The translations under genes and the position numbers were made by a program. Under the pieces are notes generated by a model. That model searched no databases. It was not told the origin of the DNA and worked only from the letters and a program-made list of their open reading frames with translations. From Nostoc sp. (GTDB taxonomy: Bacteria; Cyanobacteriota; Cyanobacteriia; Cyanobacteriales; Nostocaceae), in the NCBI RefSeq assembly GCF_036917655.1, contig NZ_JBALCY010000076.1:105464-169463 (forward strand): a stretch of DNA of 64,000 nt. Reading direction: 5' to 3'. Below are positions 50,211-58,713 of the stretch, in pieces. Within the stretch, counting starts at the first letter, position 1, and the number at the start of each line of letters is the position of its first letter.

Positions 50211-50480
50211 ATGAATATTTCCTTAACAACCCAGCTTGAGCAGTTTATTCAAAGTCAGGTTGCAAGTGGGAAGTACACCTCATCAGAAGAAGTGATTCTT
50301 GCAGGTATTAGGCTGTTGGAAGAACGGGAACGTATTTATAAAGGTCGGTTTGAGGAACTGCAAAGGGAAATTATGATTGGGGTTGAGCAACTTGATAGCG
50401 GAGAACGACTCGACGGTAGAGAAGTAATCGAGCAACTGCGTCAAAAGAACCAAGCTTTGAGAAAGGCTCAGGCGCAATAA
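50211..50480 (+). CDS. parD: Type II antitoxin, ParD/CopG-like
   Basis: MNISLTTQLEQFIQSQVASGKYTSSEEVILAGIRLLEERE is the typical ParD N-terminus. Its stop overlaps the toxin start (TAATG). Confidence 0.8.
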   Translation: MNISLTTQLEQFIQSQVASGKYTSSEEVILAGIRLLEERERIYKGRFEELQREIMIGVEQLDSGERLDGREVIEQLRQKNQALRKAQAQ

Positions 50481-50785
50481 TGAGTTTATATTTTCTATCG
50501 CCCCAAGCTGCCCAAGACTTACAAGAAATTAACGATTACCTATTTGCTGGTAATCCAGATGTTGCAGATAGATTGCTCACACTCATCACTCAAAAGTTGG
50601 ATACTTTAGCACAGTTTCCCAGTATGGGACGTAGACGGGATGAACTTTTACCTGCGCTGCGTAGCTTTCCAGTTGATGATTATTTGATATTTTATCGGTC
50701 AATTGCAGAGGGGATTGAAGTTGTGCGGGTAGTGAGTGGCTATCGTGATTTAGAGACGCTGTTTTTAGATGATGATTCAAGGTAA
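50480..50785 (+). CDS. parE: Type II toxin, ParE/RelE family
   Basis: 101 aa, ...YLIFYRSIAEGIEVVRVVSGYRD, a typical ParE C-terminus. Confidence 0.8.
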   Translation: MSLYFLSPQAAQDLQEINDYLFAGNPDVADRLLTLITQKLDTLAQFPSMGRRRDELLPALRSFPVDDYLIFYRSIAEGIEVVRVVSGYRDLETLFLDDDSR

Positions 50786-50791
50786 TAATTT

Positions 50792-52201
50792 TCAGTCTAT
50801 TAAAAAACAAATCTTGTTACAGTAGACTTTAGCTTCCCGTTCTAGACGTTCAATTTCTCTTTTCCACGGCTCAAGCCTGTTTTCTCGCTTTCGTAATTGA
50901 TCTGGTGTAGGGTTTCTGGAAGGCTGGGTATTTGGATTAGGCAGAATTCCATGATTTTTAAGCCAAGTGGGGGAAAATTCCTGCCAAAGAAATAGATGAT
51001 CGTGCTTATCGCCACCCAGACAACGAATCCGCTTGACTGAAAGAGTGGATTCACCAAAAAGGATTTGCTCATTTCTGGAATTTTTTGGAAACAGGCGTGT
51101 CTCACTACCTCTTCCACGAAAGAATTCGACTACAAACCACTCACCAAAATCAAATATACAGACTTCTGTTGGGTCGCTACCATCATCCTCTAGTAGATCA
51201 ACATCATCTTGAATTTGATACCCGATGGCAATTTGTGATGTTTTAGGTAACAAGATGCGAAGCCGTTCAAAGCGGTTACTGTAATTAGCCCAAAAGTCTC
51301 TGCGTCTACGTAGCTGATTTGACTCGAAGTCTTGTAAATCCAGCCTATTCAATATGAGATTTACTAACTTTTGGAAGTCACCATAATTGATACCTCCAAT
51401 CCACTCTCTAAGTTTTTGCCTTGCTGGATCTAAAAGTTTATACCACTTTTCACCATTTCTATAGTTATTTCGCAACCAATCAACCAGTAAAGAATGATTG
51501 GTTGCTATATTATTGGAAACATTAGTGAGTAAATAACTAACAGCTTTTATTTGCTGAGTATCTGACATTTCATCTAAACATATTAACAGCCATTGTACCT
51601 GCTGATGATTTGGAGAAGTAATTGTAGAGAAATCGGGAGTTATATCTTCTATAAATTGGCTAAACAATGGAATATAAGCAGGTAAAATGTCTCGGATGTT
51701 GTTTAGCAATCCAGTTCGATTAACACGCTTTTCGCAAGCAATTTTCGCTAATTCTCTACCTGCTTGTGTACTGCGAAGCGCCCGAATAATTTGAACTGGT
51801 AGCAGATGACTAACTAAGCCAGAATTAGCAAAAATATCAAAAGATTCAGCTAGAGACTGTGCTAAAACCTGTTCTTCCTGACCACTAGAATAAAGAGCTA
51901 AACGCCACAATAGCTGATGTTGCAACCATAAGTTAGAAATTGCTACCTTCCAAATAGCTGCTGATGTTTTCCTGCATCGGTCAATATTTTGCTGATCCCA
52001 CTGCGCTTTAGCATGGATGCAGTAAATCCAGTCCAACGGACTTACTTGATCAGCTTTACCCTGTTCAATAGCTTCCAATATTTTATCAACACTTGGTATT
52101 GATATTGTTGCATCTGGTAACTTACTTGCAAGCTGAATAAGTTGATTAGGACTACACTGGGGAGTTTCAGGTAGGGAAGGAATGGAAAACTGAAAATTCA
52201 A
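50792..52201 (-). CDS. Hypothetical protein, last gene of the Zorya-like operon. Possibly ZorC-like (EH-signature-type C-terminal domain).
   Basis: 469-aa ORF starting 13 nt after the zorB-like stop. The C-terminus has CIFDFGEWFVVEFFRGRGSE followed about 40 aa later by GGDKHDHLFLWQEF (a conserved-looking Glu...His pair). The family assignment is inferred only. Confidence 0.45.
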   Translation of the reverse strand: MNFQFSIPSLPETPQCSPNQLIQLASKLPDATISIPSVDKILEAIEQGKADQVSPLDWIYCIHAKAQWDQQNIDRCRKTSAAIWKVAISNLWLQHQLLWRLALYSSGQEEQVLAQSLAESFDIFANSGLVSHLLPVQIIRALRSTQAGRELAKIACEKRVNRTGLLNNIRDILPAYIPLFSQFIEDITPDFSTITSPNHQQVQWLLICLDEMSDTQQIKAVSYLLTNVSNNIATNHSLLVDWLRNNYRNGEKWYKLLDPARQKLREWIGGINYGDFQKLVNLILNRLDLQDFESNQLRRRRDFWANYSNRFERLRILLPKTSQIAIGYQIQDDVDLLEDDGSDPTEVCIFDFGEWFVVEFFRGRGSETRLFPKNSRNEQILFGESTLSVKRIRCLGGDKHDHLFLWQEFSPTWLKNHGILPNPNTQPSRNPTPDQLRKRENRLEPWKREIERLEREAKVYCNKICFLID

Positions 52202-52214
52202 AATTGTTTCTCCT

Positions 52215-52954
52215 TTAAAGAGAGCTTTTGGTGATATCTTTCTTTAACTCATCACTGCGAAACTGAAAACGGAAAACTACCTTGCGATCGCCTGGATTAT
52301 CACGTTTCTTATCAGATTCAATCTCTCCACGACCAGCAGCTAATATTTTCTGGCTTAAAGATGCTTTGGTAGGGAAATTCATGTCATAAAAAATGTATGT
52401 ATAAACTGATGATGCTCGCAACAAGCTTAGTTGTAGATTGGTTTTGTCATCTCCTTCTGAGCTAGTATGACCTTCTATAACTACACGGCTAATTTCCTGA
52501 TCAAATTCTGGTTTAGAGAAAATCACACCACTGTAAACAGGAATAAAGCGGCGTAGGAAAGCTTTACCTTCTGGTTTAAGTTCTGTACTTCCCTTGGCAA
52601 AAAGAATTGATTCTTGGATACTGACATCCCCATTATCTGGGTTGACTTTGACGTTGATAAGCTGTCGCGTATATAACTTGCACTTTTCATGGTCTGGAAC
52701 CCTTGTTGCAAGGAGAACACTCTGGAAAATTAAAGACGCGACAGCTTATTATTGCTTTTCATCTGTCCCACAACATTACCAATTACTACCCGTTTTGGTA
52801 CATCCTTTTGAGCAAGCTGGAGTAGGGCAGTGATAAATAGCAAAGCAAAAAACATTAGTAAACTAGACATTAAATCGGCAATAGACAGATAGATACTAGA
52901 GTCATCATCCTCTATAATCTCTGTGTTGATTTCACCTCTGATCAAATCATCCAT
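52215..52954 (-). pseudogene. MotB/ZorB-like stator subunit (N-terminal TM helix with Asp, C-terminal OmpA-like peptidoglycan-binding domain), interrupted by one frameshift
   Basis: The N-terminal frame gives MDDLIRGE...SIYLSIADLMSSLLMFFALLFITAL and stops at 52730. The -1 frame is open from 52745 and continues ...VKVNPDNGDVSIQESILFAKGSTELKPEGKAFL...VVIEGHTSSEGDDKTNLQLSLLRASSV. The ATG at 52954 overlaps the zorA-like stop (ATGGATGA). Confidence 0.7.
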
Positions 52955-55352
52955 GATTGCTTCCACCAGTACCAAATTGGCGGTTATCATGTGCAGCAAC
53001 TAGAACTTTTGCTGTCTCTAGTAAACCTCCGCAAACTCTAGCCATAGAAGTATCTGCTTGTTGGAAAAAGCTTACCTGTGAGTCAACATTCCTTTGCATA
53101 GAAACTTCAAGATGACTCTGCAAAGACTGAAGGCTATTGTCAAATTTTCGATTCAAATTCCTGTACGAATCGTCCACTCTTTGCACTTCCTGACCAATAC
53201 CACGAGCCAGATTTTCTAGTTGTATTAGTCGTTGTGCATCATTTAATCCAGCCGCACTAACTAATCTGTTAATTTGTTCGACAGACTCCTGAATTTTAGT
53301 CATACTTTTGTCTACTTCTTGAGTCAATTTACTACGTCTTTCAAATTCCTCACGGAAGACTTGATCAAGATTTTTCACAACCCCAGATAATCCTTCCTGT
53401 TGTTTGCCTAGTGTCCCCTCAAGTAAGTTGTTTTGTTCTTGAAAAAACATCTGTAAATTCGCTTGATATTCTTGCCGGAATTTTGTCAAATCTTTCTCTA
53501 CTGTTTGGCGGGTGGCTGTGAGTGTTGTGTCAATATTTCCTAAAGTGGCCAGAAGATTATCCTTTGCATCATTCATCAAGCCAGAGGCTTGATCACCCAC
53601 TGTTTTTAGAGTATTAGTTTGCTCATGAAAGGTTGTATTTGCTTGGGTAAGAATTTGGATAATTCCAGTCCGAGTAGCTTGAAGCATCAGCTGTTCTACT
53701 GCTGCGCGTTCTTGTAGCGCTGTTTGCAGTTCCTCTCGAATTCCTTTGAAGGTAGCAGCCGCTTTTTCTGCACTGGCTTCAAAAGCACTTCGTTGGGCTG
53801 TCATTCCTTCGATACTCTGAACTACACCTCGATTAATTTCGTGGGCTGTTTGTTGTAGAACTCCCGTAGTTTCAGTTTGGAATTGACTCAAAGTTTGCCC
53901 CATATTGTTAGCAAATCCTTGAAGCATATTCTGTTCTATTACTGCGCGTTCTTGTAGCGCTATTTGCAGTTCTTCTCGAATTCCTCGGAAGGTAGCAGCA
54001 GCTTGCACTGCGCTGGCTTCAAAAGCACTTCGCTGGGCTGTCATTCCTTGGATACTTTGATCTACAGCTCGATTAATTTCCTGTGCTGTTTGTTGTAAAA
54101 CACCTTTTGTATCTGTTTGAAATTGATTGAGAGTGTATCCCAGATGGTTCGCGAATACTTTGAGTTCTACCAAAGTTTCTTTTTGAAAGTTCTGAATTGT
54201 CAAGATGGAACTTGCCAAATTTTGAGATATACCACCCAATTCTCTATGCAGTGTTAGCACCGCGGTGGAAGCTTGCTGTGTTAACTCTGCACTTCTATCT
54301 AATCTATCTGCAATGGGTTCAAGTACCTGAACTCGCAGATCCTTGATGAGTTCTTCTAAAACTTTCTGTCCCTGATTTTCTTGGAGTTCTCGGAGTTGTT
54401 TCTGCTCTTTGAAAATTGCTTCTAAAGCTGGAAATATCTGCTGACGCACCGCTAGGGCAATAGCTTGGGCTGATAACTGATTTAAACCTGCAAACTGTTC
54501 TGCAATACTCCTACCTACAGCTTGACCAATGCCTTCTGCACTTAACTGCTTTAGCCCGGTCAAGTTTTTTGCTACAAGACTAAGTGCTTCAGCTACTTCA
54601 CGGTTGGCATTTTGTTCTGCAATACTCCTACCTACAGCTTGACCAATGGCTTCTGCACTGGGTTGGTTTAACCCTGACAATTTATTTCCTACACGGATAA
54701 ATGCCTCAACTAGATCGCTATTGCTATTATCTGCCGTTTTTAAAGTTGCGATCGCTTTCAATTTCTGACGCAAACTATCACGCCGTTTCTGCCGTAGTGA
54801 ATCACACCCAAACAAAACTAGAAGAAACAAGCTACCAGAACCAAGCCCCATCATGGAAGTGGAAAAAGCTGTTTTCATTCCCACCAGTAACTCTTTACTG
54901 GCAGTCATCAATTCTTTGGGATTATCTGTAGATAAATTAATTCCTTGGAGTCCCTGTTGTATACCATAAAAGGTTCCTAAAAGACCAATAGCAGTACACA
55001 AGGTTGTCACGAAACGCAGGGAACTTCGAGGTATTGGGCGGGCTAAGACAGATGGATACTTTATCAGTACGAACTTGCCATCCTTTTGCGCTTGTTGAAT
55101 TATACTTAGATCATCGGTTCCTAAATGCTTTTTTAACCAGTTGCGAACTTCGTTTGAAAGGTTTACATTTTTACCCTTTTTCATCAAAATTTTAATAGAG
55201 GCTCCAGTCGCGCCACACTCTGAGCGCCAATACTGCCATAATGTGTAAAATTCAATAAAAATTGCGGCTACTAACACAAAAGCAACTGTCCAATGAAAAG
55301 GTTCGTTATGCCAAATAATGCCCCAAACTTTTGCTATATCCATGCTGTACAC
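52947..55352 (-). CDS. ZorA-like protein: MotA/ExbB/TolQ-type proton-channel domain plus a ~600-aa repetitive coiled-coil tail
   Basis: There are three TM helices. Channel motifs are TAIGLLGTFYGIQQGL and GMKTAFSTSMMGLGSGSLF. The remaining ~600 aa are helical, Q/A/E-rich, and carry internal 39-aa and ~80-aa duplications. Confidence 0.75.
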   Translation of the reverse strand: MYSMDIAKVWGIIWHNEPFHWTVAFVLVAAIFIEFYTLWQYWRSECGATGASIKILMKKGKNVNLSNEVRNWLKKHLGTDDLSIIQQAQKDGKFVLIKYPSVLARPIPRSSLRFVTTLCTAIGLLGTFYGIQQGLQGINLSTDNPKELMTASKELLVGMKTAFSTSMMGLGSGSLFLLVLFGCDSLRQKRRDSLRQKLKAIATLKTADNSNSDLVEAFIRVGNKLSGLNQPSAEAIGQAVGRSIAEQNANREVAEALSLVAKNLTGLKQLSAEGIGQAVGRSIAEQFAGLNQLSAQAIALAVRQQIFPALEAIFKEQKQLRELQENQGQKVLEELIKDLRVQVLEPIADRLDRSAELTQQASTAVLTLHRELGGISQNLASSILTIQNFQKETLVELKVFANHLGYTLNQFQTDTKGVLQQTAQEINRAVDQSIQGMTAQRSAFEASAVQAAATFRGIREELQIALQERAVIEQNMLQGFANNMGQTLSQFQTETTGVLQQTAHEINRGVVQSIEGMTAQRSAFEASAEKAAATFKGIREELQTALQERAAVEQLMLQATRTGIIQILTQANTTFHEQTNTLKTVGDQASGLMNDAKDNLLATLGNIDTTLTATRQTVEKDLTKFRQEYQANLQMFFQEQNNLLEGTLGKQQEGLSGVVKNLDQVFREEFERRSKLTQEVDKSMTKIQESVEQINRLVSAAGLNDAQRLIQLENLARGIGQEVQRVDDSYRNLNRKFDNSLQSLQSHLEVSMQRNVDSQVSFFQQADTSMARVCGGLLETAKVLVAAHDNRQFGTGGSNHG

Positions 55353-55368
55353 CTCTTGTTTATCTTGG

Positions 55369-55716
55369 TTATATCTTTTTGAATTGCTTTAATTCTTTAT
55401 CCGCAAGAACTTCTTCAGCTATCCGCATTGGGAGATGTTCTGCATACAGGCGGTTTCCTATAGGTTCCCGGAGACGTAAGCTATAAACTGGCTCACCTTC
55501 TGCCTTTTTGTCCTCAATTAGATAAACCTGTTCTGGTGCATAGCTTCGCAATAAACGCACCTGCAAACAGGTTTTTAAATCCCGTGAAGAAGTAGATAGG
55601 GGTGAATCATGCCCAAATAATTCACAAGCGACTTTCCAAGCGTGGTTAACCGCCACAATTTCTTCAACCAATTTCTCCACAGAAGGGTATAATAGTTTCG
55701 CAGTTTCATCAATCAA
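55369..55716 (-). CDS. Hypothetical protein, first gene of the Zorya-like operon
   Basis: 115-aa ORF ending 17 nt before the zorA-like start, with non-repetitive composition. No recognisable motif. Confidence 0.5.
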   Translation of the reverse strand: MIDETAKLLYPSVEKLVEEIVAVNHAWKVACELFGHDSPLSTSSRDLKTCLQVRLLRSYAPEQVYLIEDKKAEGEPVYSLRLREPIGNRLYAEHLPMRIAEEVLADKELKQFKKI

Positions 55717-55902
55717 TGCTTTTGACCTACTTGTCTGAGCTTCAATAGGTCTATAATTCCCAAAATGAAAATTTATTTAACTTTTCTTGATAAAGCTATA
55801 TTGATAAAAGTAATTTCTGATGCCAAGCCCCTCTTTGGGTGTTAAAAAGTTGGGAGTATCACCAAATGTATTCGCACATTCTCTATTTTCCTTGTTATGC
55901 CT

Positions 55903-55942
55903 GAGAAAAAGAAAACAAAGTCTGCTTACGCAGGCTTTGTTT
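55903..55942 (-). terminator. Rho-independent terminator (minus strand) separating the upstream cassette from the Zorya-like operon
   Basis: Minus-strand stem aaacaaagcctgc-gtaa-gcagactttgttt followed by tctttttctc. It lies 60 nt after the stop of the 56002..56502 ORF. Confidence 0.6.
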
Positions 55943-56001
55943 CTAAAGCAGTAAATTATAGTTTAATGGCAATTTAATCTACCACTACTCAATTAAAAAT
56001 C

Positions 56002-56502
56002 TCACAAAATCTCTGCCAACTTTACCACCAGAGTATTTGCTAAATCCACTAACCTAATATCATCTGTATCAAAACTATTTTCTTCACCAGCTAAAAGATT
56101 TTTTACCGCAGATAACCTGTCATTGGTTTCAGAAATTCTCCAAGATTCTTCTAAGTTTACTGCAAAATCAAACAGCGATCGCTCTCCTAAATGCTGTCTT
56201 ACCCTAACAGCTACACTATCATTACTTACCAAAAATTCCTTGATAGCATCTAATCGAGAATTACCTAATATTTCGTCATTTCCCCACGTTTCCAGCCAGT
56301 CTCCATCTACATCTTCAACGTAAAAATTGACAAAATTAACCCCGTAAGTTAGCCAGTTTTGCTGCATTTGTCGGGCTGTTGCTAAAGCTTCCGCAAATGT
56401 ATCTACTTGATTGTTGCAGCTGTGAGTTTCTCTTTTATTAGCCATAAAAGCTGTAATTGGCACGTAAGTATATAAGGCTATAACACAAATCTGGAATATC
56501 AA
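56002..56502 (-). CDS. Hypothetical protein (start possibly at the internal Met, 56445)
   Basis: 166-aa ORF, 12 nt downstream of the preceding ORF, with acidic and ordinary composition. No motif recognised. Confidence 0.5.
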   Translation of the reverse strand: MIFQICVIALYTYVPITAFMANKRETHSCNNQVDTFAEALATARQMQQNWLTYGVNFVNFYVEDVDGDWLETWGNDEILGNSRLDAIKEFLVSNDSVAVRVRQHLGERSLFDFAVNLEESWRISETNDRLSAVKNLLAGEENSFDTDDIRLVDLANTLVVKLAEIL

Positions 56503-56514
56503 ATTCCAGAAAAT

Positions 56515-57204
56515 TCACGAAAATTTTAAATATTTGCCACCAGAAAGATAATCACTGTTATACAGGGCCACGTTGACTAACTGGTTGACAAAATTAGCAT
56601 CCTTGGGATTGTAACTTAAGAACAATCCTCTCTCTATTTCCCACGATCGCAGTGTATTTTGCCAAGCTTGGTACTTTTGGTGATTAAGTTCTTCAGAAAC
56701 ACTAGTTACTTGAATACACAGTGGTTGATTGTTACGACTAACAATTAAATCTGTTGCCATCGAAAGGTCGGCGATATAACGCTGCCAAAAACTACCTTCT
56801 CGCTGAACAATATCTTGAGCTATTGATTTAATGATATCATGATCAACCTGATTAAATTCGCCTGCCATCAATTTTTGCTTCCAAATATAAAACTTGGAGT
56901 CACTTGCATTAATCCATCTAGGAAAGAGATAAGCATACCAATATCTCTCGATCGGCGTCATTTGCTCAAACTTTGCTTTTTGTTCTTCTTCTGAAGGTAA
57001 GGATTTGATTATCAGCCAAATGGTAGAATCCGTAATCACCTCTAAGAGAAATGCAATGACAAATGGTTTTGCAGTCAGGGAACCTGGCTTGATATTCTTT
57101 ACCCAACGATTGATTTCATCTAATTTTCTCGCTAAATTATGATCTATCGAGGAGGCTTGCTCGATAAGGGACTTTAGCTTATCCTTAATTTCTTTTGCTT
57201 GCAA
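56515..57204 (-). CDS. Hypothetical protein
   Basis: 229-aa ORF with a helical N-terminus and one hydrophobic segment (PFVIAFLLEVITDSTIWLII). No motif recognised. Confidence 0.55.
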   Translation of the reverse strand: MQAKEIKDKLKSLIEQASSIDHNLARKLDEINRWVKNIKPGSLTAKPFVIAFLLEVITDSTIWLIIKSLPSEEEQKAKFEQMTPIERYWYAYLFPRWINASDSKFYIWKQKLMAGEFNQVDHDIIKSIAQDIVQREGSFWQRYIADLSMATDLIVSRNNQPLCIQVTSVSEELNHQKYQAWQNTLRSWEIERGLFLSYNPKDANFVNQLVNVALYNSDYLSGGKYLKFS

Positions 57205-57296: not shown

Positions 57297-58046
57297 TTAA
57301 ATATTCTCTAGGTCGATGCCCTGTATACGTAAAACCTCCCGCAGTCGAGCAATTTCTTGGTCTGCCTGTTGGGCGCGTTCTTCTGCTTGTTGGGCGCGTT
57401 CTTCTGCCTGTTGGGCACGTAAACTTTCTTGTTCAGCCAATTCTTCTGATGATAGTATTAATTGGTTTTCCGTAGTGAAGAATCTTAATTTACCTTCATA
57501 AACTCCCAAATAAAGTTCTAACTGCTGACTCCACAAACGTCCATCAGTGGTGGGTTGAATTTCTTGATACTTACCATCAACTAAATGAAATCCCTGAAAC
57601 TCCATTGTTACAGGGTCAAACCAGAAATAATCTGGTGTACGGAAGGTATCCTGATAAACTTGTTTTTTTAAACCTTTATCAACTGCTGCCGTTGAACTTG
57701 ACAAAATTTCCACAATCAGATTTGGATATTTGCCGTCTTCTTGCCAAACTACCCAACTCTTACGGTCTTTTTTCTGAGTTCCCAAAACTACAAAAAAGTC
57801 TGGGCCACGGAAATGTTCTGATTTTCTTTGGTTGGGACTATAGTAAATCGTCAAATTGCCAGATGCATAGAAATCTTGCCGCTCTCGCCACCATAATTTA
57901 AGTATGCGAATCAGCAAATCGATTTGGTCACGATGCAGATCACTTTCCAAGGGTGGTTCGTCACTAAGTAGATCGCCAAGAGGAAAAATAACTTCGTCCT
58001 CTGAAATCCCATCAGAGATGAATTCTAGGGTAGCAGGTTCAGACAT
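57297..58046 (-). CDS. Uma2-family (DUF820) PD-(D/E)xK putative endonuclease with a C-terminal AQQAEER coiled-coil repeat
   Basis: GPDFFVVLG ... PNLIVEILSSST motif pattern of Uma2. Tail SLRAQQAEERAQQAEERAQQAD. Confidence 0.8.
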   Translation of the reverse strand: MSEPATLEFISDGISEDEVIFPLGDLLSDEPPLESDLHRDQIDLLIRILKLWWRERQDFYASGNLTIYYSPNQRKSEHFRGPDFFVVLGTQKKDRKSWVVWQEDGKYPNLIVEILSSSTAAVDKGLKKQVYQDTFRTPDYFWFDPVTMEFQGFHLVDGKYQEIQPTTDGRLWSQQLELYLGVYEGKLRFFTTENQLILSSEELAEQESLRAQQAEERAQQAEERAQQADQEIARLREVLRIQGIDLENI

Positions 58047-58068: not shown

Positions 58069-58713
58069 TTACTGAAAATTCGCTAATTTGCAGATGGCTT
58101 TGAAAACTTGTAATAACTCTATTGCATCTGGAGATTCGTTTAAACTTAATAATGGCATTAACTGATAAGTTGACTGCTCGTCACGTGTTAAATGAACAAA
58201 TTGATAACGCAGTCCGTTAGTTGCTAGTCCCCAAATTGATGTTTGTTGCTCTAGACTCTTAAAAGCATAAGTGAGTAATTGAGGTAAACCCTCACCAACT
58301 TCGATTGCACTATTTTTAGTTTCAATCACTACAACCCAAAATGGCGGCGTAATCTTACTTTGAAAACTGTTGATTGCTAAAATATCCATCCGTCCGGTAA
58401 TTCTTCTGTCTTCATCTTCGACTGCGATCGCAATGCTATCTTCCATTGTCAAGCGAATCGGTACATCGTAAAATCCTGCTAACCGCATTAGTGGCGCGAT
58501 TGTTAAAAATTTAACTAACCCCTCAGAAATTTTACCCAGCATTAAATAACGTTCAAAGTCGCTTCTGATTCGCAATAAATCCTGCTGTTCAAACTCTGTT
58601 AATGGTTCTAAATTTAAGAAATCTGTAAATGAACCATTTGAAAGCTTGTCTAGTTTAAGAAAGCGATGAACATCGTTGAGAGATAGGCTGCTAGCTTCGA
58701 CGGTAAGTGTCAT
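58069..58713 (-). CDS. PD-(D/E)xK nuclease-fold protein resembling the HsdR N-terminal (HSDR_N_2-type) domain
   Basis: GRMDILAI ... FWVVVIETKNS ... GLPQLLTY gives a D...E.K catalytic-core pattern. 214 aa. Confidence 0.55.
   Translation of the reverse strand: MTLTVEASSLSLNDVHRFLKLDKLSNGSFTDFLNLEPLTEFEQQDLLRIRSDFERYLMLGKISEGLVKFLTIAPLMRLAGFYDVPIRLTMEDSIAIAVEDEDRRITGRMDILAINSFQSKITPPFWVVVIETKNSAIEVGEGLPQLLTYAFKSLEQQTSIWGLATNGLRYQFVHLTRDEQSTYQLMPLLSLNESPDAIELLQVFKAICKLANFQ

Follow-up and report, generated by a model that had tools for sequence, protein, structure and literature searches.

We describe here a four-gene cassette, orf115-zorA-zorB-zorC, located on the minus strand (55716-50792) of a 64,000-nucleotide stretch of a Nostoc sp. 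contig (NZ_JBALCY010000076.1, positions 105,464 to 169,463; this whole stretch is referred to as the window). We consider it probable that the cassette represents a cyanobacteria-wide clade of Zorya anti-phage systems built from these four genes and devoid of ZorD, in which the product of orf115 supplies the missing role, and that the copy in the window has been broken by a miniature inverted-repeat transposable element (MITE). Zorya is among the most widespread anti-phage systems, and in the current model a ZorAB motor recruits a nuclease, either ZorD or ZorE. Three types have been defined, namely type I (ZorABCD), type II (ZorABE) and type III (ZorGABF). In the Escherichia coli system the loss of any gene abolishes defence, ZorC binds DNA and ZorD is the nuclease.

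The listing of open reading frames (ORFs) shows the four genes tightly packed and co-directional, as described in the initial annotation of the window, and the peptide motifs quoted there (TAIGLLGTFYGIQQGL, GMKTAFSTSMMGLGSGSLF and SIADLMSSLLMFF) were all found in the translations. A gap of 25 nucleotides separates orf115 from zorA (counted to ATG 55343) and one of 13 nucleotides separates zorB from zorC, while the zorA stop and the zorB ATG overlap by 8 nucleotides (ATGGATGA). The ORF lister started zorA at GTG 55352 (801 amino acids, 55352-52947); ATG 55343, giving 798 amino acids, is the likelier true start, because the resulting N-terminus MDIAKVW matches that of the relatives and a Shine-Dalgarno sequence, AAGAGG, lies 8 nucleotides upstream.

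The zorA product was matched by the PADLOC model ZorA1 (PDLC00597) with E=3.5e-303. Its translation comprises a channel domain (approximately residues 1-190) followed by a helical tail of about 600 residues, and the alignment with hhalign of a profile of 21 cyanobacterial ZorA proteins to canonical ZorA1 gave a probability of 96.4% (E=1.4e-09) over the channel helices. The Pfam model MotA_ExbB, on which the initial annotation had made its proposal depend, scored 21.6 bits on the window ZorA, under the cut-off of 22.9. This test proved unsuitable, since it does not discriminate: a canonical ZorA1 annotated by the NCBI Prokaryotic Genome Annotation Pipeline on a Klebsiella plasmid scores no match at all. 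The channel region is weakly MotA_ExbB-like, as would be expected had an energiser of the TolQR/ExbBD type or a stator of the flagellar type been mistaken for Zorya. The cassette shares with these 5:2 motors (flagellar MotAB, ExbBD/TolQR) the superfamily of the channel subunit and an Asp in the transmembrane helix of the partner. However, ZorA is not paired with an ExbD/TolR protein but with one that carries an OmpA domain, the long cytoplasmic tail is present, ZorA1 and ZorB1 are the best models by huge margins, and a gene with an EH signature is part of the operon. Furthermore, none of the inspected orthologous loci lies within a Tol/Ton or motility cluster, and to our knowledge cyanobacteria have no flagella. 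We therefore give a misread energiser or stator practically no chance; family searches and profile alignments agree with the Zorya-type ZorA/ZorB/ZorC operon that had been proposed initially.

The MotB-like gene zorB is read as three ORF pieces between 52999 and 52215. Both of its fragments match the PADLOC model ZorB1 (PDLC00609), the N-terminal one with 1.4e-12 and the C-terminal one with 4.9e-34, and the OmpA model of Pfam is matched with 9.2e-10. The disruption had been attributed to a simple frameshift, which is wrong: the gene is split by an insertion of 89 bp, consisting of an 87-bp element and a duplicated TA, and in the alignment the same site is empty in four related loci (L001, L002, L004 and L006). 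The inverted repeats at its ends read AGCTGTCGCGT / ACGCGACAGCT, and the duplicated TA lies at 52747-52748 and 52658-52659. In silico removal of the element together with one TA yields an intact ZorB of 216 amino acids, almost identical to that of L001. Aligned to E. coli ZorB (8QYD chain F), this repaired protein gives E=1.1e-07, and the channel Asp is in register (SIADLM vs SYADLM).

Relatives of the inserted element were found in unannotated DNA of two conjugative Nostoc plasmids, with 90% and 78% identity, and in both the homology stops exactly at the inverted repeats (L090 301-389; L091 301-391). The copy of N. edaphicum is flanked by TA on both sides, and that of UHCC 0926 lies between TA and AA. 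The window and 1.5 Mb of related loci contained no other copy. Folded as single-stranded DNA the element forms a hairpin (z = -4.3). It is a MITE: it is small and non-coding, with inverted repeats and a TA duplication, it has other copies, and the orthologous sites are empty. It resembles cyanobacterial MITEs in its size, its 11-bp inverted repeats, the TA duplication, the hairpin and the intergenic plasmid copies, but differs from them in that no named MITE or insertion sequence family could be assigned to it. The element sits after codon 69 of zorB, parting the segment with the transmembrane helix and the Asp from the peptidoglycan-binding domain. The insertion appears recent, as the cassette shows no other lesion; and, since the E. 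coli system depends on each of its genes and zorB is disrupted, the window copy is most probably inactive.

A scan for pairs of the inverted repeats also returned six metagenome contigs, which are unrelated to the MITE and share only a motif of 11-13 bp. Three metagenome contigs (L076, L078 and L081) carry arrays of this motif, AGCTGTCGCGT(CT), in both orientations and with a spacing of about 32 bp. A contig bearing an identical orf115 stops inside zorA and is silent on the presence of the MITE in that assembly.

The identity of the 469-residue protein, which the initial annotation had left ambiguous, is clear: it is ZorC. It matches the Pfam family EH_Signature (PF15611) with E=5.8e-38 over profile positions 2-421 of 423, and the PADLOC model ZorC1 (PDLC00618) with E=5.5e-184; a canonical ZorC from the Klebsiella plasmid, taken as a control, gave a weaker match to EH_Signature (1.9e-28). 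Residues E359 and H402 are invariant, and the distance between them, 43 residues, is that of E400 and H443 of E. coli ZorC (EcZorC), a pair which is essential there. The AlphaFold2 model (predicted local distance difference test, pLDDT, 85.8) shows a helical N-terminal region and a small β core bearing E359/H402, and ends in one long helix (433-468), the C-terminal globular domain being absent. In EcZorC, which has 560 residues, this domain is needed for DNA binding and defence.

Scanning genomes with ZorC yielded 75 loci, mostly from Nostocales, out of about 90 cyanobacterial loci overall. By tblastn, orf115, zorA, zorB and zorC occur together in nearly all of the 75, including those in unrelated contexts, with orf115 directly upstream of zorA; the synteny proposed earlier as a check is thus borne out. 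In two distant loci the identity of ZorC is just 37-43% and that of orf115 still 51-53%. A search with orf115 as the query led to four distant loci in cyanobacterial orders outside Nostocales, from Phormidium, Crocosphaera, Laspinema and Oculatellaceae. All four, which represent unrelated contexts, have their genes arranged as orfX, ZorA, OmpA protein, EH_Signature protein, and no Snf2 gene was found near the cassette in any of them. No large same-strand gene immediately follows zorC in the 75 loci of the ZorC scan, and no dedicated ZorD lies within 10 kb of the cassette in the about 90 cyanobacterial loci. In the window, as had been noted initially for ZorD and ZorE, no ORF exceeds 801 amino acids, no ZorD, ZorE, ZorF or ZorG was found, the remaining large ORFs match no Zorya model, and there is no HNH match on the proteins of the cassette or its neighbours.

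As a canonical type I reference we used a locus from a Klebsiella plasmid (L089), retrieved from a plasmid collection with a fragment of E. coli ZorB. When canonical ZorD was compared by tblastn with 1.59 Mb of sequence, nearly all cyanobacterial, a weak match in L070 and a strong match in L026 were obtained and nothing else. The ZorD-specific N-terminal half matched 24 plasmid records, with a taxon breakdown equal to that of the canonical ZorB search, and among the Nostoc plasmids, including the one that bears the cassette, none was matched. Two Snf2 genes were considered as ZorD and rejected. The first, located behind zorC in L030 and its plasmid twin L082, matches DpdE-02853 and DrmD; none of its 25 best-scoring models is a ZorD1 model, and the genes after it encode a DNA methylase and a DEAD-box helicase. 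It thus belongs to a neighbouring DISARM/Dpd-like system. The second, in L026 (Nostoc sp. WHI), lies about 5.5 kb upstream of the cassette on the same strand and matches ZorD1 with 7.8e-82; it is a core helicase, with 70-96% identity across distant orders and at least 7,997 homologues. On the PADLOC models, canonical ZorD itself (L089 9375-12623) scores higher as DpdE (PDLC02854, 2,417 bits) than as ZorD1 (best model, 1,555 bits), so that ZorD and DpdE calls can be confused.

Pairwise ratios of nonsynonymous to synonymous substitution rates (dN/dS) for the window genes, zorB in its repaired form, against those of 11 intact relatives were 0.15-0.30 for orf115, 0.21-0.32 for zorA, 0.06-0.20 for zorB and 0.23-0.47 for zorC, at all levels of divergence. 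These values, between 0.06 and 0.47 in all four genes, indicate that the ZorD-less unit is kept by selection. Among the 68 loci not cut by contig ends, all four genes are intact in 42 and at least one is broken or deleted in 26, counts that hinge on length thresholds and on the assembly quality of metagenome-assembled genomes. In L041, which comes closest to the window when the flanking genes are compared, zorA and zorB have been cleanly deleted. The initial annotation had offered either a new subtype, with the upstream ORF as a possible effector, or a decaying type I system. The latter, that is a canonical zorABCD operon from which zorD was deleted in this genome and which is now merely in decay, might be suggested by the disrupted zorB, the many relatives with partial cassettes and the ParDE pair in the position expected for zorD. 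We hold it to be very improbable. In no relative, near or distant, is zorD found behind zorC, and this includes the 42 loci with four intact genes; the gaps after zorC are too short for zorD remnants; orf115 is an extra conserved gene, without counterpart in the one canonical type I locus inspected (L089); and the unit without ZorD is under purifying selection. The distinct subtype with the upstream ORF is favoured.

Homologues of orf115 fall into 139 clusters, of which all the named ones are cyanobacterial hypothetical proteins, and a profile search against 1.84 billion representatives gave 148 clusters at 50% identity, nearly all of them standalone proteins of 100-130 amino acids. The AlphaFold2 model (pLDDT 93, predicted template modelling score 0.84) has the predicted topology α-α-β-β-β-α-α, made up of a helical hairpin, a sheet of three strands and a pair of short helices. 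The invariant positions are I20, A22, N24, W27, K28, K48, Q52, R54, L56, L66, E75, L82, H94, P96 and R98. Foldseek comparison of the model with PDB and BFVD gave nothing below E=0.098, the profile had 0 matches at E<=10 among PDB sequences, and orf115 had no match in Pfam, PHROGs, PADLOC or NCBIfam, with Pfam and PADLOC also empty for 43 family members. A RelE/ParE-like toxin, which has a similar topology, was rejected on the level of sequence (0.13% probability by hhalign with the ParE-like protein encoded next to the cassette). As for a split-off C-terminal domain of ZorC or a fragment of ZorD, hhalign was not significant in what is a weak test with single-sequence templates. Because the clade lacks both canonical ZorD and the C-terminal domain of ZorC, orf115 is the candidate for an adaptor or effector, and from its synteny it may take over the role of these missing parts. 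Tentatively, and with some doubt on our side, orf115 could be a hitherto unrecognised Zorya component, acting either as the effector or as an adaptor through which the shortened ZorC works without an Snf2 nuclease. If this is true, orf115-ZorABC would be a fourth Zorya type, found in the data examined in cyanobacteria only, and would stop phage otherwise than by ZorD-mediated DNA degradation.

The surroundings of the cassette bear on its function. On the mobilizable plasmid2 (312 kb) of Nostoc sp. HK-01 the cassette is followed by a DISARM/Dpd-like block (L082 13861-25386; likewise L030 11861-15579) formed by an Snf2 helicase, a large DNA-modification enzyme and a DEAD-box helicase, and in some other loci its neighbours are HEPN/MNT, ParDE or an NB-ARC/TPR protein. 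The patchy distribution, the varied contexts, the plasmid carriage and the neighbours speak for a mobile defence module more than for a housekeeping one.

Several points weigh against the proposal of a ZorD-less defence system completed by orf115. ZorABC without ZorD gives no protection in E. coli (PMC11946911; the construct is also in PMC11890865), hence a system lacking ZorD requires another effector. The orf115 protein shows no recognisable catalytic or binding fold, and its role is deduced purely from synteny and selection. In a Foldseek comparison of the ZorC model with PDB, all matches were helical-repeat noise and EcZorC (8R68) was not among them; PDB searches with the single ZorC sequence and with its profile were negative, and the hhalign comparison of clade ZorC with canonical ZorC was not significant; consequently, the homology of ZorC rests on the shared Pfam and PADLOC families. 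The distant loci in Phormidium, Crocosphaera and Oculatellaceae are flanked by metabolic or housekeeping genes and not by defence islands. No published phage-defence experiment was found for any cyanobacterial member of the clade. Finally, the search for ZorD covered the cassette neighbourhoods and the plasmid collection and not whole chromosomes, so that a partner encoded elsewhere is possible.

This last point opens the way to an effector in trans, an Snf2 or other nuclease encoded elsewhere in the genome, such as the core cyanobacterial Snf2, with orf115 serving as a regulator or assembly factor. The core helicase is ubiquitous in cyanobacteria and, as seen in L026, can lie close to the cassette. 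Such an arrangement seems to us unlikely, although it is the most serious of the alternatives. The conservation and abundance of the L026 protein are the pattern of a core gene and not of a defence partner; of about 90 loci, a single one has it close to the cassette; the scoring covered its generic helicase lobe only, and the ZorD1 and DpdE models of PADLOC cross-match. Besides, the cassette changes context, even onto a plasmid, without the core Snf2, and in canonical systems ZorD is always adjacent.

A non-immune function has also to be weighed, with the ZorAB-like proteins forming a peptidoglycan-anchored, ion-driven motor for housekeeping or envelope stress. Consistent with it are the ordinary metabolic genes around the three distant cassettes just named, the lack of a recognisable effector nuclease, and the position of the cassette in many Nostoc genomes at one chromosomal site, between acs...orf229-orf166 and terC-ndk-speA. 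We judge this reading improbable, as the cassette is often lost or pseudogenised (26/68 loci), its plasmid-borne copy adjoins the DISARM/Dpd-like block, and several loci have toxin-antitoxin pairs, together with genes that by their domain content are putatively restriction-type and NLR-like, beside it. In addition, the context varies between genera, and the proteins belong to families with experimentally shown anti-phage function.

We propose, by homology with the type I system of E. coli, that in the ZorD-less cassette ZorA and ZorB would form a 5:2 proton-driven motor in the inner membrane (ZorA5B2), anchored to peptidoglycan by the OmpA-like domain of ZorB, with the ZorA tail of about 600 residues reaching deep into the cytoplasm. 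An envelope perturbation at phage entry would be sensed, whereupon the tail would recruit ZorC, the EH-signature DNA-binding protein, and the orf115 protein would supply the missing adaptor or effector activity, alone or with ZorC.

Judged from its sequences, the cassette is a member of the Zorya superfamily that would work like Zorya. It cannot be filed as type I, because ZorD and the C-terminal domain of ZorC were looked for and not found, and it is neither type II nor type III. The NCBIfam type I models score far below their cut-offs on the window proteins, which marks a divergent clade caught only by the PADLOC sub-models. The relaxed '[system]_other' rule of PADLOC is content with two co-localised defence genes, and the loci of the clade would presumably be called incomplete Zorya and not a defined subtype. 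No publication was found that deals with Zorya in cyanobacteria, with a type lacking ZorD or with a fourth type, and a clade-wide ZorD-less variant with orf115 as an additional fourth component is apparently undescribed.

With type I Zorya (EcZorI of E. coli NCTC 9026, PMC11946911; Klebsiella L089) the cassette shares a ZorA whose MotA-like channel is followed by a long helical tail, a ZorB with a transmembrane Asp and an OmpA-like domain, a ZorC with the EH signature and its E...H pair, and the gene order zorA-zorB-zorC with tight or overlapping junctions. It differs in that ZorD, an Snf2 helicase/nuclease of about 1,080 amino acids encoded after zorC, is absent from the window and from the loci of the relatives; in the conserved 115-residue gene added upstream of zorA; in a ZorC of 469 amino acids against 560, without the C-terminal globular domain; and in very divergent sequences, with a ZorA tail made of 80- and 39-residue modules of variable copy number. 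Type III (zorGABF; PMC8565338) resembles the cassette in its ZorAB core, a small accessory gene upstream and a different one downstream, and it has no recognisable Snf2 or HNH nuclease either, though it has been shown to defend; however, orf115 is unlike ZorG (DUF2894) and ZorF (DUF3348), and the downstream gene is a type I ZorC. Type II (zorABE) has in common the ZorAB core and a single small soluble effector gene, whereas there is no HNH/ZorE here, and the scores of the ZorA2 and ZorB2 models are far lower than those of the type I sub-models.

The clade may serve as a natural test of what ZorC does alone and of what the minimal effector module is, and in orf115 there is an uncharacterised protein fold that probably acts in immunity. 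It would extend Zorya biology to cyanobacteria and their phages. In this genome the system is probably dead through the MITE, a kind of loss that is frequent in related Nostoc.

The features of the cassette are collected in Table 1.

Table 1. Positions of the cassette genes and of associated elements in the window.
Feature	Position	Strand	Description
orf115	55369..55716	-	first gene of the cassette, 115 amino acids, TTG start
zorA	52947..55343	-	798 amino acids from ATG 55343; MotA-like channel domain and helical tail
zorB, disrupted	52215..52954	-	MotB-like transmembrane helix with Asp, and OmpA-type peptidoglycan-binding domain
zorC	50792..52201	-	469 amino acids, EH-signature protein; TTG start preceded by AAAGGAG
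MITE-like insertion in zorB	52660..52746	.	87 bp; perfect terminal inverted repeats of 11 bp
80-residue tail module of ZorA	53673..54155	-	two tandem copies, QFQT[DE]T..GVLQQTA...GMTAQRSAFEASA; boundaries approximate
39-residue tail module of ZorA	54453..54686	-	two copies, motif AIGQAVGRSIAEQ; boundaries approximate
upstream intergenic region	55717..56001	-	285 bp; putative cassette promoter after a hairpin and T-run behind orf166

The tail modules of ZorA were recognised by motif counting, with the motifs of the 80-residue module at residues 410/490 and 436/516 of the window protein and those of the 39-residue module at residues 235 and 274; Tandem Repeats Finder did not detect the modules at the DNA level. 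The orthologues (L001-L075) contain one, two or three copies of the longer module, with protein lengths of about 672, 760 and 840 amino acids, and between 0 and 2 copies of the shorter one. In E. coli the tail measures about 70 nm for about 507 residues (PMC11946911), and on this scale one 80-residue module would lengthen the tail by about 11 nm. The modules thus provide natural length variants of a structure whose integrity is essential in E. coli.

The region upstream of orf115 probably carries the cassette's own promoter. The hairpin and T-run after orf166 were read by eye at approximately 55945-55905, and a scan of the region for promoter and terminator consensus sequences gave nothing exceeding chance. 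Farther upstream lie two conserved orphan genes, orf166 and orf229 (56002-57204), the second of which has no significant family match and is 91-96% identical across the Nostoc loci having the gene, more than the Zorya genes are. They are followed by a Uma2 endonuclease gene (57297-58046) matching the PADLOC candidate system PDC-S03 and by a gene for a PD-(D/E)xK protein (58069-58713). All four of these genes move with the chromosomal site and not with the cassette.

On the other side, a ParD antitoxin (TIGR02606, 1.4e-16) and a weakly RelE/ParE-like toxin are encoded on the plus strand (50211-50785), convergent with zorC and ending 6 nucleotides from its stop. The pair is a variable insertion, since only some relatives carry it at this site. 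Beyond it are genes for proteins of 240, 149 and 681 amino acids, which from their translations we take to be terC, ndk and speA, respectively.

Among the other loci, L026 (1-6102) contains genes for a caspase-like peptidase, an NB-ARC/TPR protein (NLR/Avs-like) and a SWIM zinc-finger protein between the Snf2 gene and the cassette, and may be a local defence island. In Laspinema olomoucense (L086 10697-13973) two consecutive ZorB-like genes with OmpA domains are present and ZorC is split into ORFs of 186 and 379 amino acids, which could reflect a duplication or a decaying copy. Finally, an intein-splicing domain is found in several core cyanobacterial Snf2 copies (P0393, P0397, P0398, P0401, P0414 and P0451) and also in the DnaB gene beside the Phormidium cassette (L084 6810-8624).

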